From assembly GCA_018715175.1 (NCBI GenBank), contig DVME01000102.1:69-64068 (forward strand): a stretch of DNA of 64,000 bases, given 5' to 3'. The position numbers and the translations under genes are program-made. Each line of letters begins with the position of its first letter. Position 1 is the stretch's first letter. This document shows, piece after piece, positions 6,758 through 22,007 of this stretch. Below the pieces are notes generated by a model. It made no database searches and had not been told where the DNA came from. It saw only the letters and a program-made list of their open reading frames with translations. Source of the DNA: Candidatus Limiplasma stercoravium. Its GTDB lineage: Bacteria; Bacillota; Clostridia; Christensenellales; Aristaeellaceae.

Positions 6758-6909
6758 GAAGCACCTCCGCTTTCGCTTTGCAACAGTATACCACAAACCG
6801 CCGCCGGGCGCCGCGCCGCGCGCGGATTTTTTTGTCTTGGGAAGAAACGCCATCCCAGGATCGTTCTATGGTCAACTCGCCGTTTGGCGAAATGAGGAGG
6901 ATGGAGCCG

Positions 6910-9384
6910 ATGATTTCTACCCTGATTCGACGGTGTGCGGCCGCGCTGCTGTGCCTTCTGATGCTTTCGCAGGTTTCGGCAGGCTGGGCGGCGTCTGTCG
7001 ACCTGGAAGCGGAAATGGGCATCAGCGGGGCCGTCACCTACGTGCGAACCGTACCGCTCACCGTTACGCTCACCAATAACGAAACGGACGAAACCGGCAC
7101 GGTGTGGATTGACATCTCACGCTCATCCAACCAGTACGACCGTTATGAGATGCCCGTGACCATCGCCGCCGGCGCGACGGTGCAGGTTACGTTGCCGGTT
7201 TTGCTGACCATGCGGCAGGACAGCTATGAAGTTGTGTGGGAATCCGGCGGTAAGGAAAAGCGATCCGCGGTAAAAATCTCGCAGGTTATCGATCCCACAA
7301 GCATCATCGTAGGCTTGATGGAAGGCCAGGATCCACAAGCCTCCAATCTGAGCAGCGCCTTGAGCACCAAAAAGCTTGCCAATGGCGAAAGCTGGAGCCA
7401 GGTGGCGCTCACGTCGGACGAATTTCCCAGGGATGTGGAACTTCTGCGCTTCTTTGACGTTCTGGTAGTGGACGGCGCAAACCTCAACGCCCTGGACGAC
7501 GCGCAACGCGACGCGTTTGACCAATGGCTGCGCGAGGGCGGTCTGGTGCTGGTAGGCGGCGGCGCGCAGGCGGCTTCCGTATTTCCGTTTTTCGAGTCCT
7601 ACACGGGCATCCGCGCAGGAACGGCGCAACCTACGCAGGACATATCCGCCCAGCTGATCGAGCTGATGGATCTCAGCGCCTTTGCCATCCAGCAGGAGGT
7701 CACCCTCGCGTCGCTTGAAGGCGCGTCTGGCAAAAGCATCGGCGACGGCTTGGCGGATCTGTGCTCGGTGGCGAACGGGCGGGTGCTGACGTGTTCGTTT
7801 TCCTTCAGCGAAAAGCCTTTGTGCGGATGGCTGGGGCGCAACGCCGCCTTACAAAAGCTCTTGACTTACTGCGCCAACGACGCTTATGCGTCGCTTTTGG
7901 AACAGCGTTTCCGCGTCTACTATTCTACTTACAACGCGCATCGCTCCAACGAAAGCCTTCTCACCCAAATTGCCATACCCAATTCGCCGGGACAATGGAT
8001 CCCCTTGGCGGTCATCATCGCTTTTATCGTATTGGCTGGTTTTGCGGGGTACTTGATTCTGCGCCGTCTGGATCGGCGGGAATGGATGTGGGCGGTTGTG
8101 CCGGCGCTGGCCGTAGCCGCTTCGCTGGCGGTGTGGGGGCTGAGCGGCTCGCTCGAGCAGCGCGAGCCCGTAGGGGTCAGTTCTACCGTTTGCGTCATTC
8201 ACACGGATGGTTCGTCGGATGTGTCCACCAGCGTGATGGCGGCCAAAGCGCAAGCCGAGCCTCTCACGCTTAGCGCTGTCGAGGGCGAACCGGATCTCGG
8301 CCCATCGGTCAACTACTATTACTATAACGACGACCCCAGTTCCCCCGGCGTGCCCGCCAGCTTGCGTTACCGCTATACCTACGGCGATTCCAGCTCCCTA
8401 ACCTTTGCCAAGGTCACCGCGTGGCAGCCGGTGAGCATGGCGTTTCAGGGAGTGCCCGTTAAAGATTTTCGCGGCGTTTCCGGCGTATGCGAATGGGACG
8501 GAGAAGACCTTTTGTTTACCCTGACCAATCAAAGCGGCCATACGCTCCCTGGCGGCGTGATTCTCTGCGCCTATGGTTACGTTACGTTGCCTTCGGTGGC
8601 GCCGGGACAAACGGCGCAGGCCCGGCTGCGCGCGCAGGGTTCCAATGGCGATGTGATAGACGGAGTGCTCAGCAGCGATCCGATGTCGGACGATCTGGCT
8701 TATTTTTCCGATATCGTGAACGTCTATGCATACCAGGTCTTTGGGGAAGTCGAGGACCCGGAGCAAAACAGCCTCAACAGCGTGCGGCGCATGCAGCTGA
8801 CCGCGCTGGACACGTCGCGCTTCGTGTACGCCGCCTTTTTGGACGATTTGGCCGACATGCAGCTGCTTGCGGACGGCCAGCCCGTCACCCGTCAGGCTCA
8901 TGTGGGCATGCTGGCGGTGGATCTTGACTATCGCTCCGTCAACGCCCAGGGGCAGGCGCGCTTTTTGCCTTCCAGCTTCCAGGTTTACCAAGCGCAGCAG
9001 GCACAGGGAGAAGCGCCTGTGGCAACGCAGTCCCTGCAAGACGAATATCACTACTATCAGCTGAGCGCGCAGCCCATTTTCGCCATTGATATCTCCGCTC
9101 TGCCCCAGGACATGGACGTCGACCTGTTCAGCATCTCCACGCCTTATCAAAACGCTTCCTACCGCGTCAGCCTGTACAACTTTCAAACCCAGCAATGGGA
9201 CGAGCATGCGGTTTGCCTTTACAATCTGTCCAGCGGTTCCCGAAGCCGCACGTCCACCTTGCCAGAACTTTCACTCTATGAAAGCGAAGGGTTTCTGTAC
9301 GCGCGCTTTGTCAGCGCCGACGATACCGAGTATGCCGAGATTCTGTCGCCTCGGCTGATTGTGGAAGGGAGTGTGCAGCCATGA
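6910..9384 (+). CDS. Large secreted/membrane protein of unknown function, first gene of the ABC-2/MoxR/VWA operon
   Basis: Signal-peptide-like N-terminus MISTLIRRCAAALLCLLMLSQVSAGWA after the RBS GAGGAGG. Two central TM helices (WIPLAVIIAFIVLAGFAGYLIL and WMWAVVPALAVAASLAVWGL). It contains a GATase1-like segment FDVLVVDGANLNALDDAQRDAFDQWLREGGLVLVGGG. The start codon is uncertain (6868/6892/6901/6910). Confidence 0.6.
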   Translation: MISTLIRRCAAALLCLLMLSQVSAGWAASVDLEAEMGISGAVTYVRTVPLTVTLTNNETDETGTVWIDISRSSNQYDRYEMPVTIAAGATVQVTLPVLLTMRQDSYEVVWESGGKEKRSAVKISQVIDPTSIIVGLMEGQDPQASNLSSALSTKKLANGESWSQVALTSDEFPRDVELLRFFDVLVVDGANLNALDDAQRDAFDQWLREGGLVLVGGGAQAASVFPFFESYTGIRAGTAQPTQDISAQLIELMDLSAFAIQQEVTLASLEGASGKSIGDGLADLCSVANGRVLTCSFSFSEKPLCGWLGRNAALQKLLTYCANDAYASLLEQRFRVYYSTYNAHRSNESLLTQIAIPNSPGQWIPLAVIIAFIVLAGFAGYLILRRLDRREWMWAVVPALAVAASLAVWGLSGSLEQREPVGVSSTVCVIHTDGSSDVSTSVMAAKAQAEPLTLSAVEGEPDLGPSVNYYYYNDDPSSPGVPASLRYRYTYGDSSSLTFAKVTAWQPVSMAFQGVPVKDFRGVSGVCEWDGEDLLFTLTNQSGHTLPGGVILCAYGYVTLPSVAPGQTAQARLRAQGSNGDVIDGVLSSDPMSDDLAYFSDIVNVYAYQVFGEVEDPEQNSLNSVRRMQLTALDTSRFVYAAFLDDLADMQLLADGQPVTRQAHVGMLAVDLDYRSVNAQGQARFLPSSFQVYQAQQAQGEAPVATQSLQDEYHYYQLSAQPIFAIDISALPQDMDVDLFSISTPYQNASYRVSLYNFQTQQWDEHAVCLYNLSSGSRSRTSTLPELSLYESEGFLYARFVSADDTEYAEILSPRLIVEGSVQP

Positions 9385-10319
9385 TTGAGCTTCGCGGCTT
9401 AACGCACCGATACGGCTCCTTTATTGCGCTGGATCAGCTGAGCCTAAAGGTTCCCAAAGGCGATCTGCACGGCTTCGTCGGGCCCAACGGCGCCGGGAAA
9501 ACCACCACCATGCGCATCCTGGCCACGCTGCTCAAGCCAACTTCCGGCCAGGCGCTGGTGGACGGCAGCGACGTGGCTCTCCATCCGCGGGACGTCCGTC
9601 GCGTCGTAGGCTACATGCCGGACTTCTTCGGCGTATACGACCGGCTGAAGACCTGGGAATACCTGGACTTTTATGCGCGCTGTTACGGCTTTGACGCCTG
9701 GAAGCGGCGATGCACGATTGACGGCATGCTGGAGCTGGTCGGCCTCACCGACAAGCGCGACAACTATGTGGACGAGCTCTCCCGCGGCATGAAACAACGC
9801 CTCTGTCTCGCCCGCGCGCTCATTCATGACCCTGCCCTGCTTTTGCTGGACGAGCCGGCCTCCGGCATGGATCCGCGGGCGCGCTCAGAAATGAAAACCA
9901 TTCTGCGCACCCTCAAATCCCTGGGCAAAACGGTATTGATCTCCTCGCATATCCTGCCAGAGCTATCCGAAATGTGCGACTCTCTGACGATCATCGACCA
10001 CGGCCGGCTGGTGTTTTCAGGCACGGTGGAAGCGCTGGGGCAGCGCATGAGCGGCAACGCGCCCCTGAGCGTTCAGCTGTTGCAGCAAGCCGCTGCGGAA
10101 ACGATGGACACGGCCGAAAGGCTGCTGCGGGAGTTCCCAGGCGTTACGGGTGTAAGCCGTGAGCCGGATCGCGTTTTTCACGTCTCATTTACGGGCGATC
10201 CAACCCAGGCCGCGGCGCTGCTTCGCTCGCTGGTCAACGCCGGCCTTCCGCTGGCGGATTTTCACCGTGCCCCGGTCAATCTGGAAAAGGTATTCATGGA
10301 GGTGACCCAGCATGAATAA
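9381..10319 (+). CDS. ABC transporter ATP-binding protein (ABC-2 type)
   Basis: Walker A GPNGAGKTT, signature LSRGMKQRL, Walker B LLLLDEP. Its start overlaps the upstream stop (ATGA). Confidence 0.9.
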   Translation: MIELRGLTHRYGSFIALDQLSLKVPKGDLHGFVGPNGAGKTTTMRILATLLKPTSGQALVDGSDVALHPRDVRRVVGYMPDFFGVYDRLKTWEYLDFYARCYGFDAWKRRCTIDGMLELVGLTDKRDNYVDELSRGMKQRLCLARALIHDPALLLLDEPASGMDPRARSEMKTILRTLKSLGKTVLISSHILPELSEMCDSLTIIDHGRLVFSGTVEALGQRMSGNAPLSVQLLQQAAAETMDTAERLLREFPGVTGVSREPDRVFHVSFTGDPTQAAALLRSLVNAGLPLADFHRAPVNLEKVFMEVTQHE

Positions 10320-11205
10320 CCCCATTTTTGCCTTTCAAGCGCGTAGGCGCATGCGTTCCCTGCAAGTTCCCATCATTCTGACGCTGTACACATCGGCGTT
10401 GACAGCGGTTGCCGCGTTAACCTCATACGCCCGGTTTTTGGGCCCGACTTTTCTCATTGGCGATATGAGTGCTCAGCTGGCAGGATATCTGCTGGTGCTC
10501 CTGCTGCAATTCGCGCTGTTGTTGCTTGTGGCCCCGGCTGTTACCGCATCCGCCATATCCGGCGAGCGTGAGCGCCAAACCCTGGATCTGCTGCTGGTCA
10601 CCGGTACCAGCTCGCTTAAGCTGATGCTGGGCAAGCTGCTGGAAAGTTTTTGTTTTCTGGCACTCATGGTGGTATGTTCCATGCCCGTGCTCTCCCTCAT
10701 CATCCTCACCGGAAGCGCGACGGTAACGCAGGTGCTCCAATCCGTTGCGTTCCTGATTCTGTTCGTTCTTTACGCGCTCAGCATTGGCCTGATGTGCTCC
10801 ACGCTGTTCAGGCGGGCGGCGACCTCCACCATCGCCAGCTATTTGGCGGTTTTTCTCATCGGCATCTTGACCCTGCTCCCGCTATGGTACGATGTCAAGC
10901 GAATTGGCGATCTCTACGACGCTTTGACCGAATCGGGCATCCAGGTGCAAGCCTTGGATTACACGCCTATTTCCTTTATCATCAATCCCGGACTGGGCCT
11001 CTTTGCGTTGCTGGAATCGCAAACCGCAGTCTTTCACAACAGCTTATGGAGCGTCAGTTACACGCTGTCCGTGACTTTGGACTTTCTGCCCCTGCAAAAA
11101 TGCGTGTATGGAAACATGATCTTTATGGCCGTCGCGTCCGCCGCGCTGATCTTACTGGGAGCGCTCAGGCTCCGGCCGGGACGCGAGCGGATTCGGAGGC
11201 GCTGA
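10312..11205 (+). CDS. ABC-2 family permease (NosY/GldF-like)
   Basis: 297-aa polytopic membrane protein with about 6 hydrophobic segments. It overlaps the ATPase gene by 8 nt. Confidence 0.7.
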   Translation: MNNPIFAFQARRRMRSLQVPIILTLYTSALTAVAALTSYARFLGPTFLIGDMSAQLAGYLLVLLLQFALLLLVAPAVTASAISGERERQTLDLLLVTGTSSLKLMLGKLLESFCFLALMVVCSMPVLSLIILTGSATVTQVLQSVAFLILFVLYALSIGLMCSTLFRRAATSTIASYLAVFLIGILTLLPLWYDVKRIGDLYDALTESGIQVQALDYTPISFIINPGLGLFALLESQTAVFHNSLWSVSYTLSVTLDFLPLQKCVYGNMIFMAVASAALILLGALRLRPGRERIRRR

Positions 11206-11207
11206 AG

Positions 11208-12554
11208 ATGACTTCAATTCAAATGGCATTACGGCCCATGCGCCGCCGCATGCGGTTGCGGCGGATGGTCACCTGGACGGCGTACGGCGCTTTCGTCGGC
11301 GCGGCCTGCACCTTACTGGTTCGCGTAGCTTCGTTTCTTTGGCTGCTCTCCAACGCATGGCTTTGGGAATGGATCGCGTATTTGAGCGGCCTTGCGGCGT
11401 TTGCGCTGGGCGCTTGGCTTTGGCCCATCTCTGACCTGGCGGTGGCGCGGGAAGCGGACGGGCTGGGGCTGAAAGCTCGCGCGCAGACGGCGCTGATGCT
11501 TGAAAGCCTCGATACGCCCATGGCCCGCGTTCAACGCGAGGACGCCTTGCGCGCCCTAAGCGGCCTCAACGCCAAGGCGCTTCCCCTCAAAGCGCCCAAG
11601 CCGGCATGGATTGGCGCGTTGACCTGCGCCGCGCTCTTTGGCTTGAGCTTTTTCCTTCCCAATCCGCAACAAGAGGCCCTGGACGCAAAGGCCGCCATTC
11701 AAGAGAGCTTGGCGCAGCAGGCCGAACAGGTGCAGGCCGCCGCGACAAGCCTTGACGAGAACGCGGTGACCGCGCAGGCGCTGATGAAAGAACTGGCCCG
11801 AGAACTTGACAAAGCGCAGACCGCACGCGAAGCGCTGCTGGCGATCGACCGGGCGGAGCGCAGCCTTAACGAAGCGTTGTCCCAAATGCTAACGGATGCG
11901 GCAGCGGCCTTGGAAAGCGCCGGTCAGGACGCCCTGGCCCAAGCGCTTATGCAAGGCGATTCGCAGGCGTTGGCTAGAGAACTGGCATCCATCCCTGACG
12001 CTTCCAAAGCGCTGGCGGCCGCGGCTGCCAGCGCCGCCAGCGCCGAAGCCGCCCAGACTCTCAGCGCTGCCGCACAAGCATTGGAAAGCATGGATGCGGA
12101 TTTGGCCGCCCAGGAGCTGACCGCCCTTAGCGATTCCACGGCACAGGCTCTTGAAGCAATGGCGAACGCGCGCACGGCGGCTGCCGGCGCCTCGATGTCC
12201 TCAGCCGGGGCCAGCCTGGGAAGCGGCGGGGAGGAAACGCAGGACGCAAACGGCCAAAGCGCTTCCGTCAGTCCGCAGGCGCCCCAAAAGCAAACCCGTG
12301 AATACGAAGCCGTCTACGATCCGACGCGCCTGGGCGTATCCGGTACCGTCACCCAGGAGCGGGGCGTATGGCACGAAGGCACGATTTACGAGGCGGACGC
12401 CGGCACGGGCGAGGGCGCGCCGGAGGAAAGCGTCCCCTACAACCGGGTATTTGCGGAGTATGCGCAGGCCGCGACGGACGCGATGCAATCCTCCAACCTC
12501 CCCCTTTGGGCACGGGAATGGGTGGAGGAATACTTTCAAGCGCTGCAACCCTAA
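11208..12554 (+). CDS. Membrane-anchored Ala/Gln-rich (coiled-coil-like) protein of unknown function
   Basis: ATG at 11208 follows GGAGG and lies 2 nt after the permease stop. There are two N-terminal TM helices, a long Ala/Gln/Leu/Glu-rich region, and the C-terminus YNRVFAEYAQAATDAMQSSNLPLWAREWVEEYFQALQP. The listed ORF 10650..12554 extends upstream only as out-of-frame overlap with the permease. Confidence 0.65.
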   Translation: MTSIQMALRPMRRRMRLRRMVTWTAYGAFVGAACTLLVRVASFLWLLSNAWLWEWIAYLSGLAAFALGAWLWPISDLAVAREADGLGLKARAQTALMLESLDTPMARVQREDALRALSGLNAKALPLKAPKPAWIGALTCAALFGLSFFLPNPQQEALDAKAAIQESLAQQAEQVQAAATSLDENAVTAQALMKELARELDKAQTAREALLAIDRAERSLNEALSQMLTDAAAALESAGQDALAQALMQGDSQALARELASIPDASKALAAAAASAASAEAAQTLSAAAQALESMDADLAAQELTALSDSTAQALEAMANARTAAAGASMSSAGASLGSGGEETQDANGQSASVSPQAPQKQTREYEAVYDPTRLGVSGTVTQERGVWHEGTIYEADAGTGEGAPEESVPYNRVFAEYAQAATDAMQSSNLPLWAREWVEEYFQALQP

Positions 12555-12572
12555 CACACGGGAGGATTCGGC

Positions 12573-13553
12573 ATGATTGCTAGAGAGGAAATCGAAGCGT
12601 TTGCCCAAAAGGTAACCCAAATCCGCGAGGAAATCGCCAAAGAGATCGTCGGACAACAGGAGGTGGTGGAGCAATTGCTCATCACCCTGATCGCGGGCGG
12701 CAACGCATTGCTGGAAGGCGTTCCGGGCCTTGGCAAAACGCGGCTGGTACGCACTTTGGCCCAGGTGTTTCGCCTGCCTTTCAACCGCATTCAGTTTACG
12801 CCCGATCTGATGCCCTCGGACATCACAGGCACGAACCTCATCGTCAAAGCCGAAGGCGGCAACGAGTTTCGCTTTCGTCCCGGCCCGGTTTTCGCCTCCG
12901 TCGTATTGGCGGACGAAATCAACCGCGCCACGCCCAAGACGCAATCTGCCTTGTTGGAAGCCATGCAGGAGCACAGCGTGACCGTCGCCGGAGAAACGCA
13001 CGCCCTCCCGGAACCCTTTTTTGTGCTGGCTACGCAAAACCCCATCGAGCAGGAAGGCACCTATCCCCTGCCGGAAGCGCAGCTGGACCGTTTTTTGCTC
13101 AAAATTCTGGTGCGCTATCCCAGCGTGGCGGAATTGGACGCTATCGTCCGCCTCACCACCGTTCCCCAAAACCAACACGCCCAATGCGTGGCCGGGGCCG
13201 ATACCCTGCTGGAGCTTCGACGCGTCGCCGAGGAAGTGCCGCTGGCCAAAGCCGTTTGGGACGCGGCTCTGGGCCTGGTGATGAACACGCATCCGCAGCG
13301 GCCGGAAAGCCCGGAGCGAGTCAAGCGCTCGCTGCGCTTTGGCGCAAGCCCGCGCGCTGCTCAGGCCATCGTCGCTGCCGCGCGCGTTCGCGCGTTGATG
13401 CAGGGGCGTTACAACGTCGCCTTTGAAGACCTACGCGCCGTCGCGCCCGCCTGCCTGCGCCACCGCGTGTCGCTGAGTTTTGAGGGCATGGCGCAAGGCG
13501 ACACGGTGGAACAGATCATCGAGCTTTTGCTGGAACAGCTGCCCACGGCGTAA
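12573..13553 (+). CDS. MoxR-family AAA+ ATPase
   Basis: Walker A GVPGLGKT. Walker B VVLADEINRATPKTQSALLEAMQE. The ~326-aa length is typical of MoxR. Confidence 0.9.
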   Translation: MIAREEIEAFAQKVTQIREEIAKEIVGQQEVVEQLLITLIAGGNALLEGVPGLGKTRLVRTLAQVFRLPFNRIQFTPDLMPSDITGTNLIVKAEGGNEFRFRPGPVFASVVLADEINRATPKTQSALLEAMQEHSVTVAGETHALPEPFFVLATQNPIEQEGTYPLPEAQLDRFLLKILVRYPSVAELDAIVRLTTVPQNQHAQCVAGADTLLELRRVAEEVPLAKAVWDAALGLVMNTHPQRPESPERVKRSLRFGASPRAAQAIVAAARVRALMQGRYNVAFEDLRAVAPACLRHRVSLSFEGMAQGDTVEQIIELLLEQLPTA

Positions 13554-13571
13554 CAAAAGGAGGGCTATGCG

Positions 13572-14432
13572 TTGCTTTCGGACGCTTTTTTGAACCGTTT
13601 GGATACGCTTGCCCTGCATATACGCCGTCAAAGCGGCGCTGCCGGCGGCGGACTGAGGCGCTCCAAAGCGCTGGGCAGCAGCGTGGAGTTCTCGGATTTT
13701 CGGGAATACGCGCCGGGCGACGACATCCGGCGCATCGACTGGAACGCTTACGCACGTTTTGAGCGCCTGTTTCTCAAGCTTTTTTTGGAAGAGCGCGAAG
13801 TACAGGTAAACCTGATTGTGGACGCCAGCGCGTCCATGGGCTTTGGCAGCCCGTCCAAGCTGCGCTGCGCATCCTTGCTGGCACAGGCGATCGGATACCT
13901 GGCGCTGCGCGGCGGCGACTGCGTGACCGCGTTCACCCTCGGAACCGAAGTGCGCCGCACGCGCGCGCTCAGAGGCCGTCATTGCTATGCGGAATTGGCG
14001 GCGTTTTTGGATGGCGCGATCGCTCAAGGCCAAGCGCGATTGAACCAAAGCGTGCCATCTCTGCCTTTGCCTAACGGCGGCATGACGGTGCTTGTGGGCG
14101 ACGTGCTATGCGAGGACGGATACGACCGCGCGTTTCATTCGCTCATCTACCGCCGTCAGGAACTGAGCGTATGCCAGGTGCTGTCCCCTCAGGAATGGGA
14201 GCCGTCGCTGGAAACCATCGCGGAACTGGAGGACAGCGAAACCGGCGACACGTTCGTGGTGGCTGCCGGGTACGACGTGCTGCGCCGCTATCGGGAGGCG
14301 GCGCAAAGCTATGTGGCGTCGCTGCGCGCGTTTCTGCACGCCCGCGGCGCGGCGCATGTACTGCTTTTGACCGAAGACGACTTTGAAAAAGCATTGTTTC
14401 GCGCGCTGAGCCGCTCGGGGCTGGTTGCCTGA
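13572..14432 (+). CDS. DUF58 domain protein (VWA-like, MoxR partner)
   Basis: Carries the DUF58 hallmark SVEFSDFREYAPGDDIRRIDWNAYARFERLFLKLF. TTG start after AAAGGAGGG. It lies directly downstream of MoxR, as in Bat-like operons. Confidence 0.85.
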   Translation: MLSDAFLNRLDTLALHIRRQSGAAGGGLRRSKALGSSVEFSDFREYAPGDDIRRIDWNAYARFERLFLKLFLEEREVQVNLIVDASASMGFGSPSKLRCASLLAQAIGYLALRGGDCVTAFTLGTEVRRTRALRGRHCYAELAAFLDGAIAQGQARLNQSVPSLPLPNGGMTVLVGDVLCEDGYDRAFHSLIYRRQELSVCQVLSPQEWEPSLETIAELEDSETGDTFVVAAGYDVLRRYREAAQSYVASLRAFLHARGAAHVLLLTEDDFEKALFRALSRSGLVA

Positions 14433-16227
14433 GCCAAAAAGGAGGCGACGCCGTTTGGAATGGCTGAATCCTGCCGGCGCATGGGCGTTTTTGGGCTTGA
14501 TACCGGTGGTGCTTCTTTATATGCTGCGGCGTAAAGCCAAGCGCGTGCGAGTGCCAAGCCTGGTGTTATGGCGCCTCACGCAGCAGCGCGCCGACCCCGC
14601 GCATCCCTTTGAGCGATTGCGAAACCAGCTGTTGCTATGGCTTCAGGTAGCGCTGGTGGCGTTGATGGCGCTGGCGTTGATGCGCCCGGTATCCGCAGGC
14701 GGCGAGCGGGGCGAAAGCGTGCTCATCTTCGACCTGTCCGCCAGCATGCAAACGCGCAATGAAGCGGGCGTTTCCCGGCTGGAGGAAGCGCAGCAGGCGG
14801 CCTATTCGCTTTTGGGCGGCATGCGCGACGGCGACGCGGTTACGGTGCTGGCCGCAGGGAGCCCCTATTCCCAGGTGCTTTCGCGCTCGACCGATAGGGC
14901 GGCCATCCGTCAGGCCATCGCCGGACTGCAAGCGCAAAGCGGCGGGAGCGATTTGTCAGGCGCGCTGGCCTTGGCCAACGCCATGCGCCGGGACATTCCA
15001 GGCTTGCGCGTCACCGTTTTTTCGGATTCGGCCATCAGCGACCAGCAGGCGGAACTATGGGCCGTCGGCAGCCCTGTTGCCAACCGCAGCATCCTATCGG
15101 CGCGCGTTCTTGAACAAGAAGAAGGCAATATCGCCTTTTGCCGGGTACTCAGCCGAGGCGCGGATGTCATGGCGGAAATGGAATGCCTCGCCGACGGGCG
15201 GCTTTGCGACGCGCGCACGGTCAGCCTGCCGGACGGCGTGGAGCAAAGCGTGTCGTTTTTGTTGCCCGAAGACGTGGAAACGGTCTGCGTGCGCTTTTCG
15301 CAAAGCGACGCTTTGACCGTCGACGACGAGCGTTTTGCCGTGCGCGAGCGGCCCGCCGGCCACACGGCGCTTTTGGTTACGCAGGACAACGTGTTTGTGC
15401 AAACCGCCTTGAGCCTGCGCTCCAGCCTGAGCGTGACTGCCGCTTCGCCGTCGGATGCGCAGGCAAGCGGAAAGTACGACCTGTACGTGTACGATGGACT
15501 TGTGCCTGATGCGCTTCCCGAGTCCGGCTCGCTGATGGTCTTTGCTCCGAATCGGGAAGTTTTGGGCGTCGTTCCCGGGCCTGCGCAGGCAGCCGCAGCC
15601 TTTGTGCGCGCCGCCGCCGGCTCAACCGCCAATGCGCTGTGCGAAAACCTGGACTTGGACGAAATCGCCCTGCTGTCCTTCCGTCCGCTTTCGGGCGGGA
15701 CGGCGGTGTGGCGCATCGGCGAGGACGCCCTGCTCAGCGTCACAGAGCAAAACGGCAGGCGCGCCGCTATTTTCGGCTTTGATGTCCATGAAAGCAACCT
15801 GCCGCTCAAGGCGGATTTCCCGCTGCTCATCCAAAACCTGCTGGACTATCTCCTGCCCGAAGCGTCCGCCTCGGCAACGGACGCCGTATGCGGCGACAGC
15901 GTCGACCTACGCCTGGACGAACGCACCCTCGATGCCTACGTGTCCACCCCATCCGGCGCGCGTGCCGAGGCGCCCGGCGGCCTGCTCAGCGACACGAGCG
16001 AGGCCGGGCTGTACACGCTGGTGGAACGTTTTGAGGACGGGCAGCGGCAAACCGCGTTCGCGCTTCATGCACCTCTGGCGGAAAGCGACACCCTTACCGT
16101 GGCGGACTCCACGCAGGGCGAGCATGGGCAAGGCGAGCCGGGCGGCCAGGAATGGACGGTATGGCTGCTTTTGCTGGCGCTTTTGACGCTGTTGGCGGAA
16201 TGGGAGGTGAGCCGCCGTGGGGTTTGA
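14425..16227 (+). CDS. BatA-like membrane protein: N-terminal double-TM domain plus VWA domain
   Basis: N-terminus AWAFLGLIPVVLLYMLRRKAKRVRVPSLVLW (BatA/aerotolerance-regulator N-terminal type). MIDAS-like motif DLSASM. C-terminal TM WTVWLLLLALLTLLAEW. It overlaps DUF58 by 8 nt. Confidence 0.75.
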   Translation: MPEPKRRRRRLEWLNPAGAWAFLGLIPVVLLYMLRRKAKRVRVPSLVLWRLTQQRADPAHPFERLRNQLLLWLQVALVALMALALMRPVSAGGERGESVLIFDLSASMQTRNEAGVSRLEEAQQAAYSLLGGMRDGDAVTVLAAGSPYSQVLSRSTDRAAIRQAIAGLQAQSGGSDLSGALALANAMRRDIPGLRVTVFSDSAISDQQAELWAVGSPVANRSILSARVLEQEEGNIAFCRVLSRGADVMAEMECLADGRLCDARTVSLPDGVEQSVSFLLPEDVETVCVRFSQSDALTVDDERFAVRERPAGHTALLVTQDNVFVQTALSLRSSLSVTAASPSDAQASGKYDLYVYDGLVPDALPESGSLMVFAPNREVLGVVPGPAQAAAAFVRAAAGSTANALCENLDLDEIALLSFRPLSGGTAVWRIGEDALLSVTEQNGRRAAIFGFDVHESNLPLKADFPLLIQNLLDYLLPEASASATDAVCGDSVDLRLDERTLDAYVSTPSGARAEAPGGLLSDTSEAGLYTLVERFEDGQRQTAFALHAPLAESDTLTVADSTQGEHGQGEPGGQEWTVWLLLLALLTLLAEWEVSRRGV

Positions 16228-18880
16228 ATTTGCATATCCCTGGGCGCTTCTGCTACTGGTGCCGGCGGTTGCGTGCGTCGTGCTCGTCAACCGGCGTTAC
16301 CGCCTGGGCGGTCTGTCTCTCAAGCGAAAGGTATGCCTTGCGGCGCGGCTGCTCCTGGTGGGGCTGTTGGTTTTATCGGCTGCCGCGCCGTCCGTATTGC
16401 TGCCGTCCGGCTCGGCTTGCCGGTGGTTTTTGTTGGATGTGTCTGATTCTGCAAAGGCGCAGCGCGACGCGCTGACGGCTTTGGCGCGCGACGGCCTGCA
16501 AACCCTGCCCGACGGTCAGCGCGCCGGGGTGATCGCATATGGTCGGGAAGCCATGGTGGAAACGCCGCTGAGCGACCATCCCGTGCTGGGCGACCTGCGC
16601 ACGGTGCCAGGCGCGGACGGCACCGACCTGGACGGCGCGTTGCGTCTGGCCAGCGCGCTTCTGGGCGGCAGCGGCGGGCTCACGGTGCTCAGCGACGGCA
16701 AGGGCGAGGTAAGCACCGCCACCCTGGGAATGCTGCGCGGTTTGGGCATTCCCGTAGACGTGCTCGTGCTGCAAGCGGACGCCGGCACGGACGCGCAAGT
16801 CACGGCGTTAAGCGCGCCGGCCCGGGCCTTTGAGGGGCAATCCGTCACCCTGAACGCCGTCATCGACGCGACCGAAGCGATGGAGGCTACCCTGGAATTG
16901 TATCAAAACGGCAAATGGACTGCTTCACGGACGGTTTCGCTGCTTCCCGGAGAAAACCGCTTCGCCTTTGCGGATACGGCCCAAACCAGCGGCGTGGTCA
17001 GCTATGAGGCGCGTCTGGTCAGCGCCCAAGACACCCAACCCCGTAACAACAGCGCTTCCGCTTACACCCGCGTCACCGGCGCGCCCAAAGTCATCATCGC
17101 CAGCACGGAAAGCGGCATGCAGCCGCTTTTGAGCGCAGCCGGCTTTTTGACCGAGCAGGCCGAACCCGCGTCTTTGCCTGCGTCCGCCGCAGGCTACTTG
17201 GCCTATGACGCCATCGTGCTGGACAATGTTTCCTACGACAGCCTCAACGAACGTCAATGGCAGGCCCTTAATGATGCCGTGCGTATCCTGGGCCGCGGCC
17301 TGTGCGTGCTGGGCGGCGACGAAAGCTACGCCTTGGGCGGGTATCGCGGAACGCTGCTGGAGGAGCTTTTGCCGGTGCGCATCGACGTGCGAAACAAGCT
17401 GCGCATGCCGGCGTTGTCGTTGGTCATCGCCATTGACAAATCCGGCAGCATGGCGGACGGCCTGTATGGTTATACGCGCATCGAGGTGGCCAAGGAAGCG
17501 GCCATGGGCGCTATTGAAGCCCTGAACAGCCAGGACTATGCGGGCGTGATCGGCTTTGACGAAGCGGCCATGTGGGTGGTGCCCTTTCAGCCCGTCGAGG
17601 ATCTCAACGACCTTCAGGCTCAAATCGGCACCCTTCGCGCTTCGGGCGGGACGGCTTTCTACTCAGCGCTGGACGAAGCGTATCAGGCCCTTGCCTCATC
17701 GCAAACGCCCCAAAAGCACGTTATTTTTCTCTCGGACGGACAACCCGGCGATTCTCACTTTGAGTCGTTGGCGCTGGGCATGAGTCAAGCGGGCATCACA
17801 TTGACCACCGTAGCCGTAGGCCAGGGAGCGGATGTTAAGCTCATGGAGCTGCTGTCCACCCTGGGTGGCGGTAGATGCTACCAGGTCGGCGAATTCGACA
17901 GCATTCCCAAAATCTTTACCAAGGAAACGATTCTGGCAGGCGGTTCCTACGTGCAAAACCGCTCCTTTGTGCCGGTCGTCTCGGATTCTTCAGCCTTTAT
18001 GGGCCTGGATGCGCTGCCGATGCTGGAAGGCTACCTGACCACCGTAGAAAAAACGGGCGCGACCGTGGCGCTGCGAAGCGATACCGACGATCCCCTTTTG
18101 GCCTATGGGCATGCAGGCGCCGGCACGGTGCTGTGTTGGACCAGCGACGCCCACGGCGCCTGGACCAGCGCTTACCTGGCCTGGGAAGACGCGCCCCGGT
18201 TCTTTGGCAATATGGTCACGCGCGTTCTGCCCGCCGAGGACGGCGGCAGCCTGACGGCGCGCGTGAATGATGGGAAAATGGAAATCGTCTACGAAACGGA
18301 AACCGCCGAGGGCGCTAGCGCGATGGCAGAGGTGTCCATGCCGGATGGCACGGCCCAAAGCGTTTCCCTTGTCGAAACCGCGCCCGGCGAGTACCGGGGC
18401 AGCCTGGAAGCGAACGCGCAAGGCGTCTATGCCCTTCGCGCAACGCTCGCCAGCGGCGGACAGACGGTATACGCTCAGGAAGGCGGAGCGGTGGTTGGAT
18501 TTTCCAGCGAATACGACGTGCGCGCCGTCTCCAGCGGGTGGGAAGCGCTTGCGCTTGAAACCGGAGGCCGGCTGCTCACGCCGGGCGAGGGATTCTATCA
18601 AACGCCTGTGCAATCGTCCAGCGTGCGCAAAAGCCTCCAAGAGCTGTTGTGCGTCCTCAGCCTTCTGTGGCTGCTGGCGGATATCGCCCTGCGAAAGCTG
18701 CCCTGGGACAATGCCTTGAGCGAATTGGCCGGCAGGCCGCCGCGCAGGGCCCAAACACCCAAACGTCCCTCAAAGCAACCGGCGTCTCCGACGAACCGCG
18801 AAGAACCTGCACAGGATACGGTCAGCGCGCTGCTGGCGGCCAAGCGCGCCCACGACCGTCGGGAGTCCGTCAACGAATGA
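16217..18880 (+). CDS. 887-aa membrane protein: BatA-type N-terminus, VWA, GATase1-like domain, second VWA, C-terminal TM
   Basis: GTG start that overlaps the upstream gene by 11 nt. Two DxSxS motifs: DVSDS and DKSGSM (the latter with GGT and LSDG). GATase1-like block YDAIVLDNVSYDSLNERQWQALNDAVRILGRGLCVLGG. C-terminal TM LCVLSLLWLLADIAL. Confidence 0.75.
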   Translation: MGFEFAYPWALLLLVPAVACVVLVNRRYRLGGLSLKRKVCLAARLLLVGLLVLSAAAPSVLLPSGSACRWFLLDVSDSAKAQRDALTALARDGLQTLPDGQRAGVIAYGREAMVETPLSDHPVLGDLRTVPGADGTDLDGALRLASALLGGSGGLTVLSDGKGEVSTATLGMLRGLGIPVDVLVLQADAGTDAQVTALSAPARAFEGQSVTLNAVIDATEAMEATLELYQNGKWTASRTVSLLPGENRFAFADTAQTSGVVSYEARLVSAQDTQPRNNSASAYTRVTGAPKVIIASTESGMQPLLSAAGFLTEQAEPASLPASAAGYLAYDAIVLDNVSYDSLNERQWQALNDAVRILGRGLCVLGGDESYALGGYRGTLLEELLPVRIDVRNKLRMPALSLVIAIDKSGSMADGLYGYTRIEVAKEAAMGAIEALNSQDYAGVIGFDEAAMWVVPFQPVEDLNDLQAQIGTLRASGGTAFYSALDEAYQALASSQTPQKHVIFLSDGQPGDSHFESLALGMSQAGITLTTVAVGQGADVKLMELLSTLGGGRCYQVGEFDSIPKIFTKETILAGGSYVQNRSFVPVVSDSSAFMGLDALPMLEGYLTTVEKTGATVALRSDTDDPLLAYGHAGAGTVLCWTSDAHGAWTSAYLAWEDAPRFFGNMVTRVLPAEDGGSLTARVNDGKMEIVYETETAEGASAMAEVSMPDGTAQSVSLVETAPGEYRGSLEANAQGVYALRATLASGGQTVYAQEGGAVVGFSSEYDVRAVSSGWEALALETGGRLLTPGEGFYQTPVQSSSVRKSLQELLCVLSLLWLLADIALRKLPWDNALSELAGRPPRRAQTPKRPSKQPASPTNREEPAQDTVSALLAAKRAHDRRESVNE

Positions 18881-19490
18881 AGTTGGTGCGCACGGCCGGT
18901 TCAGGCGTAGGCGCGACGACGCCCGAGCGCTTGCCCAGCTCGATGCAGCGAATCAGCCACGCCATGCCCTGCGCCAGAGAACGCATGATTTGCAGGCCTT
19001 CCTCGTCTTGCAACACCTCTTGCGGCGTATTGCCGTGCACCTGGTTCCAGTACTGCGACGACGCCACCGGCATACGGTTGATGGTGAAGTATTTGTTCAT
19101 GTCGTCAAACGCCGTGGCGCAGCCGCCTCTGCGCGCGCTGACCACCGCCGCGGCAGGCTTGTAGGCCAGGCGAGCGCCGTGCGCGAAAAACAGGCGATCC
19201 AAAAACGACTTCATCTGTCCCGACACGCCCGCATAATACACCGGGGAACCAAAGACCAATCCGTCCGCCTGCGCGCATACGTCCGCCAGGCGGTTGACCG
19301 CGTCGTCAAATGCGCAGCGGCCCAGCTTTGCGCATTGGCGGCAGGCGGCGCATCCGCGAATGGGCGAAACGCCGATGTGCTCGATCCGGCTTTCGACGCC
19401 CTGCTTTTCCAGCTCGCGGGCGACCTCGGATAGCGCCGTATAGGTGCAGCCTTTGGGGTTGGGACTTCCATTGATCAAAACCACGTTCAT
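18870..19490 (-). CDS. Flavodoxin-fold FMN reductase / iron-sulfur flavoprotein (Isf)-like
   Basis: N-terminus MNVVLINGSPNPKGCT. Compact Cys cluster CAACRQCAKLGRC (CX2CX2CX5C). GLVFGSPVYY block. Confidence 0.7.
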   Translation of the reverse strand: MNVVLINGSPNPKGCTYTALSEVARELEKQGVESRIEHIGVSPIRGCAACRQCAKLGRCAFDDAVNRLADVCAQADGLVFGSPVYYAGVSGQMKSFLDRLFFAHGARLAYKPAAAVVSARRGGCATAFDDMNKYFTINRMPVASSQYWNQVHGNTPQEVLQDEEGLQIMRSLAQGMAWLIRCIELGKRSGVVAPTPEPAVRTNFIR

Positions 19491-19589: not shown

Positions 19590-19620
19590 AAAACCTATCT
19601 TGACAAAGGAGGCGCGATGG

Positions 19621-21420
19621 GTGCGGGAATTTCTGATGGGAAATCAAGCCATCGCAAGGGGCGCTTGGGATGCCGGGGTCAACGTGGTCTGCGGCTATCC
19701 GGGCACGCCGTCGACGGAGATTTTGGAAACTGTGGCCAAACAAAACGACGGCCGCGTTTATGTGGAATGGTCGGTCAACGAAAAAGCGGCGCTGGAGCTG
19801 GCCGCGGGCGCGGCCTACGCGGGCGCGCGCGCTTTGGTCACCATGAAGCAGGTGGGGCTCAACGTGGCGGCGGATCCGCTGATGAGCCTTGCGTACGTGG
19901 GGGTCAAAGGCGGGCTGGTAATTGTGGCAGCGGATGATCCCGGCCCCATTTCCTCCCAGACAGAGCAGGATACGCGGCAGTTTGCGCGCTTTTGCAAAAT
20001 TCCCGTGTTTGATCCCCAATCGCCTCAGGAGGCCTACGACATGGTGGGCGACGCCTTTACGCTGTCGGAAAGAATCGGCTCCCCGGTTCTTTTGCGCCCG
20101 ACCACCCGCGTATGCCACGGCTGCGCGGTCGTCGCCTGCGCGGACACGCCTAAGGAGCACGCGCCTGAAGGGTTCGTGCGCGATCCCGCGAGATGGGTCA
20201 TCTTTCCGCGCTCGTCCTACCTGAATCATCTAAAAATCGAAAAGCGAAACCCCGAGCTGGGCGCCGAATTCAGCCGCTACGCCCGCAACCGTCTCTCCGG
20301 CGGCGGACGGATCGGCCTGGCGGCGGGCGGCGTGAGCCGCGCCTATCTGAAAGAAGCCCTGCGTGGATACGAGCCGTCCGTCCGGCTTTTGGAGGTCGCC
20401 ACGCCGTTCCCGTTCCCCGAGGCGCTGGCGGAAACGTTCTTGCGTTCCGTGGATGAGGTGTGGGTCTACGAGGAGCTGGATCCGGTAATCGAGCGAGAGC
20501 TCGTCACCCTGTGCGGCAAGCTGCATCTGATGATCGACATTCATGGAAAATTGGACGGCTCCTGCGCCCAAGCGGGCGAAAACAGCGTGGAAGGCGCCGC
20601 GGCGCTGCTTGGCCAATGTTTGCCCGCTTATGCTCCCCCACCTCTCCCGCAAAGGCCGCAGCCACCCGCGCTTGCGGTACGGCCGCCCGTCCTGTGCGCG
20701 GGCTGTCCGCACCGGGCGTCGTTTTACGCCGTCAAGCGGGCGCTGCACGGGCGCAAATACGTGGCTTGCGGCGATATTGGCTGCTATACGCTGGGCAACG
20801 CCATGCCGCTGGATATGGTGGACACCTGCCTTTGCATGGGCGCGGATGTGACCATGGCACAGGGGCTGCGGCGGGCCGAACCGGATCGTCTGGCCGTTGC
20901 CTTCATTGGGGACTCGACGTTCTTTGCCTCAGGCATCACGGGCGTAATCAACGCCGTATACAACGAGACCGACCTTCTGCTGATCGTTTTGGATAACTCC
21001 ACCACCGCCATGACCGGCCATCAGCCGCATCCCGGCACGGGTATTACCATGATGGGCCACCGCAAGCCGGGGCTGTCCATTGAGGCGGTGCTCACAGCCG
21101 TGGGCGTGGGCCATGTGGCCACCGTGAATCCCCTGTCGTTGACGGAGGCCGTTCAAGCCGTCCGCGACGCGGCGGATCTTACGGGCGTACGCGCCGTGGT
21201 GTTTCGCTCGCCATGCATAGCTGTTGCCAAGGGAACAGGGACTTTTGTCGTGACCGACCGCTGCATTCATTGCCGCAAATGCGTGACCGAGCTTGGCTGC
21301 CCTGCCATCGCAGCGCAGGGTGGCGAGGTCGTTATCGAACCTTCCCTCTGTTTTGGCTGCGGCCTATGCGCGCAGGTCTGTCCCGTCAAAGCCATTGAGC
21401 GCGGGGAGGTGGAAGCATGA
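19621..21420 (+). CDS. iorA: Indolepyruvate:ferredoxin oxidoreductase subunit alpha
   Basis: The GTG start sits 8 nt after AAGGAGG (ATG 19636 is an alternative). LMGNQAIARGAWDAGV N-terminus. TPP-binding region GDIGCYTLG...FIGDSTFF. Two C-terminal ferredoxin motifs, CIHCRKC..C and CFGCGLCAQVCP. Confidence 0.9.
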   Translation: MREFLMGNQAIARGAWDAGVNVVCGYPGTPSTEILETVAKQNDGRVYVEWSVNEKAALELAAGAAYAGARALVTMKQVGLNVAADPLMSLAYVGVKGGLVIVAADDPGPISSQTEQDTRQFARFCKIPVFDPQSPQEAYDMVGDAFTLSERIGSPVLLRPTTRVCHGCAVVACADTPKEHAPEGFVRDPARWVIFPRSSYLNHLKIEKRNPELGAEFSRYARNRLSGGGRIGLAAGGVSRAYLKEALRGYEPSVRLLEVATPFPFPEALAETFLRSVDEVWVYEELDPVIERELVTLCGKLHLMIDIHGKLDGSCAQAGENSVEGAAALLGQCLPAYAPPPLPQRPQPPALAVRPPVLCAGCPHRASFYAVKRALHGRKYVACGDIGCYTLGNAMPLDMVDTCLCMGADVTMAQGLRRAEPDRLAVAFIGDSTFFASGITGVINAVYNETDLLLIVLDNSTTAMTGHQPHPGTGITMMGHRKPGLSIEAVLTAVGVGHVATVNPLSLTEAVQAVRDAADLTGVRAVVFRSPCIAVAKGTGTFVVTDRCIHCRKCVTELGCPAIAAQGGEVVIEPSLCFGCGLCAQVCPVKAIERGEVEA

Positions 21421-22007
21421 ATTGTCTGATGTGCGGCGTAGGCGGCCAAGGAACGGTGCTGGCTTCAAGGCTCATCGCTGACGGGGTCATGCGGCGGGGC
21501 GAGCCGGTGCTGACGGCGGAAACCATCGGCATGGCGCAGCGTGGCGGATGCGTGGTAAGCCACGTGCGCTCCGGCTATGACGTTTGTTCTCCGCTGATCC
21601 CTATGGGGCAGGCGGATACGATCATCGCTTTTGAGCCCGGCGAGGCCGCGCGCTGTGTACCCTACCTGAAGTCCGGCGCGACGGTGGTGGTTAACACCAA
21701 GGGCGTCATGCCCGTGACCGCTTCGCTGGGCCAGGGATACCGGGCTGAGGACATGCTGGATTACCTGCGCAATCTGCCCGATATCCGCCTGTTGGAAGTC
21801 GACGGTGCGGCCCTCTGCGCAGCCTGCGGCTCCTCCAAGGTACTCAACGTAGTGCTTTTAACCGCCGCCGCGGTGCTTGGCGCGCTGCCCATTGACGTGG
21901 ACGAGCTGCGCCGCGCCATTTTGGAACGCACAAAGCCCGCTTTCCACGCGGTGAACCTCAAAGCCATGGAGCTGACCACATGCGCACTAAAGGAGGCACG
22001 GCCATGA
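21417..22007 (+). CDS. iorB: Indolepyruvate:ferredoxin oxidoreductase subunit beta
   Basis: 196 aa. N-terminus CGVGGQGTVLASRLIA is typical of the 2-oxoacid:Fd oxidoreductase gamma-like fold. ATGA overlap with iorA. Confidence 0.85.
   Translation: MNCLMCGVGGQGTVLASRLIADGVMRRGEPVLTAETIGMAQRGGCVVSHVRSGYDVCSPLIPMGQADTIIAFEPGEAARCVPYLKSGATVVVNTKGVMPVTASLGQGYRAEDMLDYLRNLPDIRLLEVDGAALCAACGSSKVLNVVLLTAAAVLGALPIDVDELRRAILERTKPAFHAVNLKAMELTTCALKEARP

Follow-up and report, generated by a model that had tools for sequence, protein, structure and literature searches.

MoxR-DUF58-VWA (Bat) modules occur very widely, as do GldG-type ATP-binding cassette (ABC) transporters of the ABC-2 class, and to our knowledge no mechanism has been established for either. 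We analyse here a locus at which two such systems are locked into one predicted operon across two phyla. It comprises eight genes in a 64,000-nucleotide stretch of DNA (the window, by which we mean the whole of that stretch) from Candidatus Limiplasma stercoravium (contig DVME01000102.1). In order, these encode a large membrane protein (P1), an ABC-2 ATPase and permease, an unnamed membrane protein (P4), a MoxR-type AAA+ ATPase, a DUF58 protein, a BatA-type membrane protein (P7) and a double-VWA membrane protein (P8), the numbers being those of the genes. P4 joins the two halves, which also appear to have an ectodomain module in common.

Several described systems resemble parts of this locus. 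MoxR/VWA pairs work through a VWA adaptor that links the AAA+ ring to the target to be remodelled, and among them NorQ-NorD has been resolved best (PMC13036017). NorQ-NorD, CbbQ-CbbO and RavA-ViaA have in common a MoxR hexamer, a VWA partner whose metal ion-dependent adhesion site (MIDAS) engages the target, and remodelling of that target by ATP hydrolysis (PMC13036017; PMC4660213). The Bat operon of Bacteroides, Leptospira and Borrelia (BB0170-BB0176), with a MoxR of the MRP subfamily, places an AAA_3 MoxR gene before a DUF58 gene and then genes for membrane proteins that carry a BatA hairpin and MIDAS VWA domains. An MRP-type MoxR also heads a conserved operon in Rhizobium leguminosarum (RL3499-RL3502), and its loss is reported to damage membrane integrity and cell morphology (PMC3893208). 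On the transporter side, GldA/GldF/GldG of Bacteroidetes combine an ABC-2 ATPase and permease with a membrane-anchored partner that has a large GATase1-like (flavodoxin-like) ectodomain. In NosDFY, the ABC-2 proteins NosF and NosY are accompanied by the large membrane-anchored extracytoplasmic protein NosD, and what requires the system is the maturation of an extracytoplasmic target, N2O reductase, not classical export (PMC8457098). Among published ideas, the nearest is that of an archaeal DUF4350-MoxR-vWA complex (arCOG01314), predicted to serve in secretion or membrane remodelling (Makarova, Galperin and Koonin 2015, PMC5898192). It brings together a membrane-anchored, GldG-like extracellular protein of the flavodoxin fold, a COG0714 MoxR, a vWA protein and Ig-like membrane proteins. 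Full-text literature searches on combinations of MoxR, DUF58, ABC-2, GldG and the Bat names returned no description of the arrangement analysed here, and the membrane system that it encodes is apparently undescribed so far.

Eight genes in a conserved order

A sequence-only reading of this DNA had described eight same-strand open reading frames (ORFs) between 6910 and 18880, and all eight are present at these coordinates, head to tail (Table 1). The junctions it gave were found as well (an ATGA overlap at 9381/9384, an 8-nt overlap at 10312/10319, steps from 11205 to 11208, from 12554 to 12573 and from 13553 to 13572, and an 11-nt overlap at 16217/16227), save for that of gene 7, which had been taken as an 8-nt overlap at 14425/14432. 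The gene 7 ORF is open from a TTG at 14425, but the TTG at 14455 sits 9 nt 3' of AGGAGG (14440-14445) and would give a protein of the length in Table 1, close to the 585-593 aa of the called homologues. Because this spacing and the homologue lengths agree, a start at TTG 14455 and a 22-nt gap are more likely, and no intergenic gap inside the block is then larger than 22 nt.

Table 1. Coordinates of the eight genes and of the region upstream of them in the window. aa, amino acids; TM, transmembrane; AF2, AlphaFold2; RBS, ribosome-binding site.
Feature	Position	Strand	Evidence or properties
Intergenic region in common with a divergent radical-SAM gene	6758..6909	+	RBS GAGGAGG just 5' of ATG 6910; alternative in-frame ATG 6868
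P1 (gene 1), 824 aa	6910..9384	+	AF2 model, hydropathy, weak clan matches, profile comparisons
ABC ATPase, DrrA/GldA/NodI-like ABC-2 type	9381..10319	+	Pfam ABC_tran 1.7e-30 (106.9 bits)
ABC-2 family permease, 297 aa	10312..11205	+	multiple TM helices, ~77-aa loop before the last TM (hydropathy)
P4 (gene 4), 448 aa	11208..12554	+	hydropathy, AF2 model, alignments
MoxR-type AAA+ ATPase, 326 aa, no TM segment	12573..13553	+	AAA_3 2.4e-63, AAA_lid_2 1.6e-17
DUF58 protein, 286 aa, no TM helix	13572..14432	+	Pfam DUF58 9.3e-30
P7 (gene 7), BatA-type, 590 aa	14455..16227	+	Pfam BatA 8.9e-12, VWA_2 1.1e-12
P8 (gene 8), double-VWA membrane protein, 887 aa	16217..18880	+	VWA_2 (two stretches, 3.7e-27), VWA 1.8e-18, GATase1_like 3.2e-9

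The borders of the block are sharp and unrelated to it, since a divergent YgiQ-type radical SAM gene lies upstream and a convergent FMN reductase gene (18870-19490, - strand) lies downstream, overlapping the last stop codon. The operon promoter is presumably located in the upstream intergenic region, where a scan for promoter-like sites found no consensus sigma-70 site. Within the block, promoter-like and terminator-like sites are no commoner than in shuffled sequence. The DUF58 start codon is spanned, at 13569-13595, by a weak hairpin with a T-run behind it (GCGTTGCTTTCGGACGC TTTTTTGAAC); it is probably not a terminator, because its stem has 5 pairs and it lies in coding sequence. The GC content of the block (0.60-0.64) equals that of its surroundings, no mobile-element genes flank it, and tRNA and Rfam scans of the window returned no matches.

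Conservation of the gene order was assessed by a profile scan with P1 against one genome per species (185,579 species), which gave 267 relatives. The best 80 of the 267 loci were annotated with profiles built from the eight window proteins, and order was scored in the loci with at least 8.3 kb downstream of P1 (n = 58). The hosts of the best 80 loci are uncultured Clostridia (Candidatus Limiplasma and metagenome-assembled genomes, MAGs, labelled Oscillospiraceae), Paenibacillaceae (many cultured Paenibacillus species and Gorillibacterium) and Chloroflexota (Chloroflexia, Anaerolineae and Limnocylindria). The order P1-ABC-permease-P4-MoxR-DUF58-BatA is kept in 53 of the 58 scored loci, in three lineages and two phyla: 10/11 in Clostridia and other Bacillota, 23/25 in Paenibacillaceae and 20/22 in Chloroflexota. 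The start of the eighth gene is visible before the locus ends in most of these 53. The sequence-only reading had raised Clostridia, Chloroflexi and Planctomycetes as groups in which the order might be shared beyond this genome; it is shared in the first two, and no Planctomycetes occur among the best 80 loci. Clostridial carriers include MAGs from the gut and from poultry faeces, and the gut carriers are abundant Clostridia that turn up in many metagenome assemblies.

The block persists as its sequences and surroundings diverge. A word-indexed search returned few close relatives of P1, and on their contigs all eight genes recur, at identities of 39%, 31% and down to 24%. Look-ups anchored on P8, which covered relatives of at least 45% identity, found the same block with other flanks at 45-48%. 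Flanking genes are unrelated among the Clostridial loci, and no flanking gene cluster is common to the three clades. No extra neighbour conserved across lineages was found in these loci; each lineage instead shows its own housekeeping synteny, with an enolase-superfamily gene and a hydrolase beside the block in Chloroflexota, and aminotransferase, GH15 and CNNM genes in Paenibacillus. Junctions estimated across the loci from hidden Markov model (HMM) envelope starts have a median of +2 nt between P1 and the ABC ATPase and of -11 nt between BatA and the second VWA protein, the latter being the same 11-nt overlap as in the window. Judged by these comparisons, the eight genes appear to form a real, tightly packed operon whose gene order is common to gut Clostridia, Paenibacillus and Chloroflexota, and the genomic evidence supports the view that the adjacency of the ABC-2 pair to the MoxR module is not accidental.

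A Bat-like module with enlarged VWA proteins

The second half of the block has the hallmarks of a Bat operon: a MoxR protein with AAA_3 and AAA_lid_2 domains, a DUF58 gene directly downstream (after an 18-nt gap), and two proteins, P7 and P8, in which a double-TM BatA domain precedes a VWA domain. Every motif quoted in the sequence-only reading can be read from the translations (GVPGLGKT, VVLADEINRA, FREYAPGDDIRRIDWNAYAR, DLSASM, DVSDS and DKSGSM). The Walker A and Walker B motifs of MoxR are intact and both are kept in 58/59 relatives. The three MIDAS motifs counted earlier stand, all in P7 and P8, but the tally omitted DUF58, which contributes a fourth DxSxS motif (DASASM) that is intact here and conserved in relatives. 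Hydropathy shows no TM segment in MoxR, DUF58 or the ABC ATPase, and DUF58 is presumed to be the cytoplasmic VWA-like adaptor of MoxR.

P7 begins with a double-TM hairpin bearing a basic loop, continues with a VWA domain (DLSASM) for which the closest solved VWA structures are those of BatB (3ibs and 4jdu), then with a beta-sandwich and a GATase1-like region, and ends in a C-terminal TM helix with the motif EWxV..RG. The N-terminal part of P8 is similarly built from a BatA-like double-TM hairpin, a first VWA domain (DVSDS) and a beta-sandwich. Beyond this, a GATase1-like domain is interrupted by a second VWA domain (DKSGSM) and is followed by more beta-rich sequence, a C-terminal TM helix and a 60-aa cytoplasmic tail with conserved positions. 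The insertion is evident from structure matches on either side of the second VWA domain (402-576), with PDB entry 3rht matching residues 333-407 and 3soz/2gk3 matching residues 594-668. P7 is homologous to the N-terminal ~340 residues of P8, comprising the hairpin, the VWA domain, the beta-sandwich and the start of the GATase1-like domain (profile-profile probability 99.3%). Residues 35-212 of P1 align with residues 199-366 of P8 over the beta-sandwich and the start of the GATase1-like domain (hhalign probability 93.5%, E=2.3e-7). P1, P7 and P8 therefore seem, at the level of sequence profiles, to carry one common ectodomain kit on membrane anchors. The earlier proposal of GATase1-like ectodomains at both ends of the operon is borne out for P8 by Pfam, and for P1 such a domain is detectable weakly. 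All VWA domains of P7 and P8 are predicted to lie outside the membrane on the basis of hydropathy and the positive-inside distribution of charge, and the VWA domain of the BatA-type protein BB0173 of Borrelia has been found by experiment to face the periplasm (PMC5700661).

The locus represents a widely conserved version of the Bat-like MoxR/VWA systems, apparently not described before, and differs from the classical operons in several respects. The Bat operons of Bacteroides and spirochaetes also encode the TPR proteins BatC/BatE, and BatD, none of which is detected by Pfam among the eight proteins here. The VWA proteins of the present block are much longer, with beta-sandwich and GATase1-like domains, P4 is an additional component, an ABC-2 pair and P1 are part of the operon, and the hosts are monoderm. 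The Rhizobium operon has four genes, is proteobacterial and is not known to include an ABC transporter. By analogy, its reported loss phenotype is the only and best experimental hint of an envelope role for the system described here. NorQ-NorD, CbbQ-CbbO and RavA-ViaA act on soluble or respiratory enzymes, whereas the likely targets here are co-encoded membrane proteins and the adaptor is of the DUF58 type.

An aerotolerance or oxidative-stress function, as the Bat name would have it, is highly improbable. It would fit the presence of a BatA domain and a BatB-like VWA fold and the established oxygen sensitivity of the original Bacteroides bat mutants, as well as the convergent redox genes at two loci, namely the FMN reductase gene of the window and an AhpC-TSA/Redoxin gene convergent to the block end in locus L085 (12832-14523, - strand). 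These redox neighbours are not conserved in other loci, so their position is probably a coincidence. The cluster is also found in aerobes (Paenibacillus, Chloroflexia) as well as in anaerobes, and a study of Leptospira biflexa reports no oxidative-stress phenotype on complete deletion of bat (PMC3557215).

A defence role, as an anti-phage or conflict system of the MoxR-vWA class, is unlikely to the point of being hardly credible, even though such systems have been described (PMC7159879) and the MoxR protein also matches bpMoxR (PF20030, 2.3e-14). That match scores 53 bits against 212 bits for AAA_3. PADLOC gave no specific match for the eight proteins, the ABC and MoxR ATPases matching only defence-system components of the P-loop or ABC ATPase type (mad3, AriA, DolB), and Pfam detects no beta-propeller or effector domain in the block. 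The block is, moreover, vertically conserved in lineage-stable contexts, with a GC content like that of its surroundings and mobile-element genes absent from its flanks.

The ABC-2 pair and P1

The ABC ATPase carries a Walker A motif (GPNGAGKTT), a Walker B motif (LLLLDEPASGMD), an H-loop (SSHIL) and an unusual signature, LSRGMKQR. In 79 of the ~85 aligned ABC ATPases of the cluster, LSRGM(K/Q/E)QR replaces the canonical LSGGQ, and it may offer an easy way to recognise the family from sequence. Both ATPases of the block look active from their conserved Walker A and B, H-loop and signature motifs. In NCBIfam, the best match of the ABC ATPase is drrA (253 bits) and the second best is GldA, both under their cutoffs. 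The permease narrowly exceeds the Pfam thresholds for ABC2_membrane_3 (4.6e-8; 33.0 bits, cutoff 31.6) and ABC2_membrane_2 (9.1e-7; 28.8 bits, cutoff 27.2), and its best match in NCBIfam is a weak one to GldF. With an ABC_tran ATPase and a permease above threshold, the pair qualifies as an ABC-2 type (type V) transporter. The permease also matches PF12679 in Pfam, which we take to be a family that contains both NosY and GldF.

These assignments bear on the possibility that the ABC-2 pair and P1 are a true exporter (its cargo being a peptide, a lipid, a lipid-linked glycan or some polymer of the wall or matrix) whose product is handled, anchored or sensed outside by the Bat-like module, in which case a common pathway, and not a single mechanical machine, would unite the halves. 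We consider this doubtful. The ATPase falls in the DrrA/NodI/GldA-like ABC-2 group, where the characterised proteins are exporters of drugs, nodulation factors and polymers, the permease reaches the Pfam ABC-2 threshold, and P1-ABC-permease can occur alone. Yet the LSRGM signature separates the ATPase from canonical exporters, no glycosyltransferase, polymerase or biosynthetic gene is conserved beside the block in the three lineages, and P1 and the VWA proteins have paralogous ectodomains, a hint that they assemble directly with one another.

P1, the signature protein of the cluster, matched no Pfam or NCBIfam family. It consists of a signal peptide, a CARDB-like beta-sandwich (residues 30-127), a GATase1-like (GldG/DUF4350/ThuA-like) alpha/beta domain (~132-300), two TM helices (~360-412) and, at the C-terminal end, an ectodomain (421-821) in which beta-sandwiches are accompanied by a single helical hairpin; the AF2 model has a mean predicted local distance difference test score (pLDDT) of 79.9. 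The most conserved part of the protein is the loop between the TM helices, which is predicted to be cytoplasmic and has the near-invariant sequence RRLDRREWxW; among 85 aligned P1 sequences, the eight commonest loop variants all retain LDRREW.W. The alpha/beta domain appears to be GATase1-like, weakly by sequence: the window protein matches ThuA at E=0.012, 13 family members give scattered matches to DUF4350, DUF7408, ThuA, ABC_transp_aux and GATase1_like, and the P1 profile matches the GATase1-like PDB structure 3soz at E=0.012. A first sequence search of a P1 profile against the PDB gave nothing useful, and a Foldseek search of the PDB with the whole P1 model returned only generic matches to proteins with several beta-sandwiches (complement C3b, transglutaminase, glycosidases; TM-scores ~0.1-0.15), which we set aside as uninformative. 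When 1.84 billion cluster representatives were scanned in full by HMMER with the P1 profile, 12,143 of them matched at E≤1e-3 and 3,045 at E≤1e-30; some of the weaker matches may reflect the shared ectodomain module alone. P1-type proteins thus look, from these profile matches, like a large family without a name.

Three of the systems introduced above can be compared with this half of the block. The archaeal DUF4350-MoxR-vWA neighbourhood may be akin to it in that MoxR and DUF58 are present here and that 2/13 P1 relatives match DUF4350 (best E=3e-4, weak), although the window P1 does not. It differs in having no ABC transporter or BatA hairpin proteins and in its subunit families, and it is likewise a prediction only. 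NosDFY offers a functional analogy only, as P1 is unlike the beta-helix protein NosD and no nos genes or copper enzyme accompany the block. GldAFG, finally, has the same combination of an ABC-2 pair with a GATase1-like partner, but P1 is distinguished from GldG by its signal peptide, central TM hairpin and second ectodomain, and by its coupling to MoxR and VWA proteins.

This last likeness raises the idea of a surface adhesion or gliding-type motility apparatus akin to GldA/GldF/GldG, in which the VWA domains would be adhesins. GldA and GldF are respectively the second-best NCBIfam match of the ATPase and the best of the permease, but these matches lie far under the equivalog cutoffs (216.6 bits against 402.6 for TIGR03522, and 28.7 against 288.5 for TIGR03518). 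For ABC_transp_aux (PF09822, GldG) the window P1 has no match and 1/13 family members has one at E=0.038, which amounts to clan-level likeness only. It is established that many Chloroflexota glide and that Paenibacillus species move on surfaces, and MIDAS VWA domains are classical adhesion modules. The closest relatives of the window locus, on the other hand, are gut and poultry-faeces Clostridia MAGs, a Pfam scan finds no other gld gene and no type IX secretion system gene within the block, and GldAFG is itself without a known mechanism. We regard a gliding-type apparatus as distinctly improbable.

P4, the protein between the halves

P4 had been read as an Ala/Gln-rich protein with two TM helices; hydropathy and the AF2 model instead give three. 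A basic helix leads into TM1 and TM2, which are joined to a small helical loop domain (residues 74-131) with an invariant Asp84 (AR..D...GL..R..TAL). TM3 is followed by a conserved LPNPQ motif, then by a long helical part rich in Ala and Gln, a disordered segment rich in Gly and Gln and, at the C-terminal end, a conserved hairpin (VPY..V..Y....P....V..YF). Given the strongly basic N-terminus and the three TM helices, the long C-terminal part should lie outside the membrane. Alignments show that P4 is kept over its full length in all clades.

No Pfam, NCBIfam or PDB sequence match was obtained for P4, and a Foldseek search with its model returned nothing at E≤0.001. A profile search with the low-complexity region masked recovered close relatives only, owing to the word-index pre-filter. 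The architecture, with N-terminal TM helices and Gly/Gln-rich low complexity, recalls what we take to be that of DUF4175 proteins. An assignment to DUF4175/TIGR02302 was considered after 1/20 members matched at E=4.5e-4, and was dropped when 0/40 of a larger set did so at E≤0.01.

A possible single system with two sub-modules

We propose that the block encodes a single system of the cytoplasmic membrane, conserved in monoderm bacteria of the Bacillota and Chloroflexota and made of two co-inherited sub-modules that act as one complex, a reading to which we give an even chance. The first, Bat-like sub-module would comprise a MoxR AAA+ hexamer and its DUF58 adaptor in the cytoplasm together with P7, P8 and the three-TM protein P4, with P7 and P8 displaying three MIDAS-type VWA domains outside the cell membrane. 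The second would comprise the ABC-2 ATPase/permease pair and P1, which would be a bitopic-hairpin counterpart of GldG in GldAFG or of NosD in NosDFY. Because the module of beta-sandwich and GATase1-like domain is shared, P1, P7 and P8 may come together as a single hetero-oligomeric array on the external side of the membrane.

By analogy with the remodelling of targets by NorQ-NorD and CbbQ-CbbO, MoxR-DUF58 could grip cytoplasmic elements of the membrane subunits and, powered by ATP, drive the assembly, resetting or switching of the VWA array outside. The conserved features predicted to be cytoplasmic are LDRREWxW in P1, EWxV..RG in P7, LRKL.WD and the conserved tail in P8, the Asp loop in P4 and the BatA hairpin loops; we name these as the only cytoplasmic targets available to MoxR-DUF58. 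Candidate grip sites are the loops of the BatA hairpins, the (D/E)W motifs beside the membrane and the P4 loop that bears the invariant Asp. ATP hydrolysed by the ABC-2 pair would move P1 and, through P1, the array; alternatively, the pair might deliver a substrate to the array. Complex formation and the direction of force transmission are what we infer from these features, and the physiological role is most likely in envelope or surface integrity, or in adhesion.

The sequence-only reading had likewise imagined a single envelope-associated machine energised by two ATPases. Its conserved unit is upheld by the gene order in the scored loci, and the assembly or remodelling mechanism that it attached to that unit is compatible with the present data and may apply. 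More tentatively still, and with rather little confidence, the system could represent a hitherto unrecognised class of two-engine trans-membrane machine in monoderm bacteria, in which an ABC-2 mechanotransducer in the style of NosDFY or GldAFG, with P1, and a MoxR-DUF58 remodeller switch a shared external array of MIDAS VWA domains from inside by ATP. If true, this would be the first mechanistic handle on Bat/MoxR-DUF58 modules. The partnerships that it predicts are those of the permease with P1, of MoxR with DUF58 and with the cytoplasmic loops of P4, P7 and P8, and of P1 with P7 and P8 outside the membrane; since the cluster is present in cultured Paenibacillus species, they could be tested in culture.

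A number of observations weigh against a single obligatory machine. In at least two loci, of a Brevibacillus MAG (L049) and of Candidatus Acetocimmeria (L058), P1-ABC-permease occurs without an adjacent MoxR half: the trio at 9914-13952 of L049 is followed by YebC and gyrase/topoisomerase-type (GyrB/GyrA-like) genes, and that at 5776-10390 of L058 by sfsA, a pseudouridine synthase gene and PGA_cap. Another locus (L032) has an aberrant, odd form of P1-ABC-permease. Bat-like modules, for their part, are widespread without any ABC transporter, and together with the solitary trios this indicates that the sub-modules can function apart. In nine loci of one Paenibacillus subclade (L022, at 17751-19163 on the - strand, and L026, L027, L033, L035, L036, L038, L061 and L062), an opposite-strand gene for a 470-aa transporter-like membrane protein, labelled MFS from sequence alone, lies between DUF58 and BatA. 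It divides the block into two transcription units that stay side by side, so a single transcript is not obligatory in every lineage. The resemblance of P1 to GldG, DUF4350 and ThuA is weak. In favour of a unit, the pairwise-identity matrices of seven of the families are correlated (Spearman 0.60-0.85), most strongly for P1-permease (0.85), MoxR-BatA (0.82) and DUF58-BatA (0.80), a pattern that fits two sub-modules inherited as a single block, although shared species phylogeny alone would also yield positive values.

Some of these points could be taken to mean that the block holds two independent systems with separate functions, an ABC-2 transporter for efflux or immunity beside a Bat-like MoxR module, adjacent by chance or through genomic hitch-hiking. 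Each half is found alone elsewhere (the trio as above, the Bat operons from established knowledge), the MFS gene separates DUF58 from BatA, and the bat cluster of Leptospira is reported to have independent internal promoters (PMC3557215). Chance adjacency would nevertheless have to accommodate an order kept across two phyla while the flanks differ between lineages, junctions that overlap or are very short, a full-length P4 between the halves in all clades and an ectodomain module common to P1 and P8. We therefore judge independence to be improbable. The solitary trios also show that P1 belongs with the ABC pair, and the coupling of the ABC and MoxR halves can be described from the loci compared as strong, not absolute.

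Variation at the remaining loci is of other kinds. L055, a distant variant, has a second permease gene (13259-15362) and its sequence ends early, and L064 has no clear genes past MoxR. L004, likewise a distant variant, has a 185-aa ORF after P1 (12204-12761) and a 202-aa ORF between BatA and the VWA protein (19869-20477).

Other genes of the window

Beyond the FMN reductase gene, positions 19618-23236 (+ strand) hold a pair of iorA/iorB-like genes for a 2-oxoacid:ferredoxin oxidoreductase and, after them, a gene whose product combines AMP-binding with AMP-binding_C_2 and is in our reading phenylacetate-CoA-ligase-like, a set typical of anaerobic fermentation of aromatic amino acids. At 52264-54885 (- strand) lies a gene for an 873-aa GH43 glycosidase with N-terminal ankyrin repeats, a seemingly unusual fusion for a bacterial glycosidase, which has sugar ABC permeases and a GGDEF_2-containing regulator of the AraC type as neighbours. 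The GC content falls to 0.53-0.56 between 56000 and 64000, where carbohydrate-uptake genes are located, against 0.60-0.64 in the remaining window.

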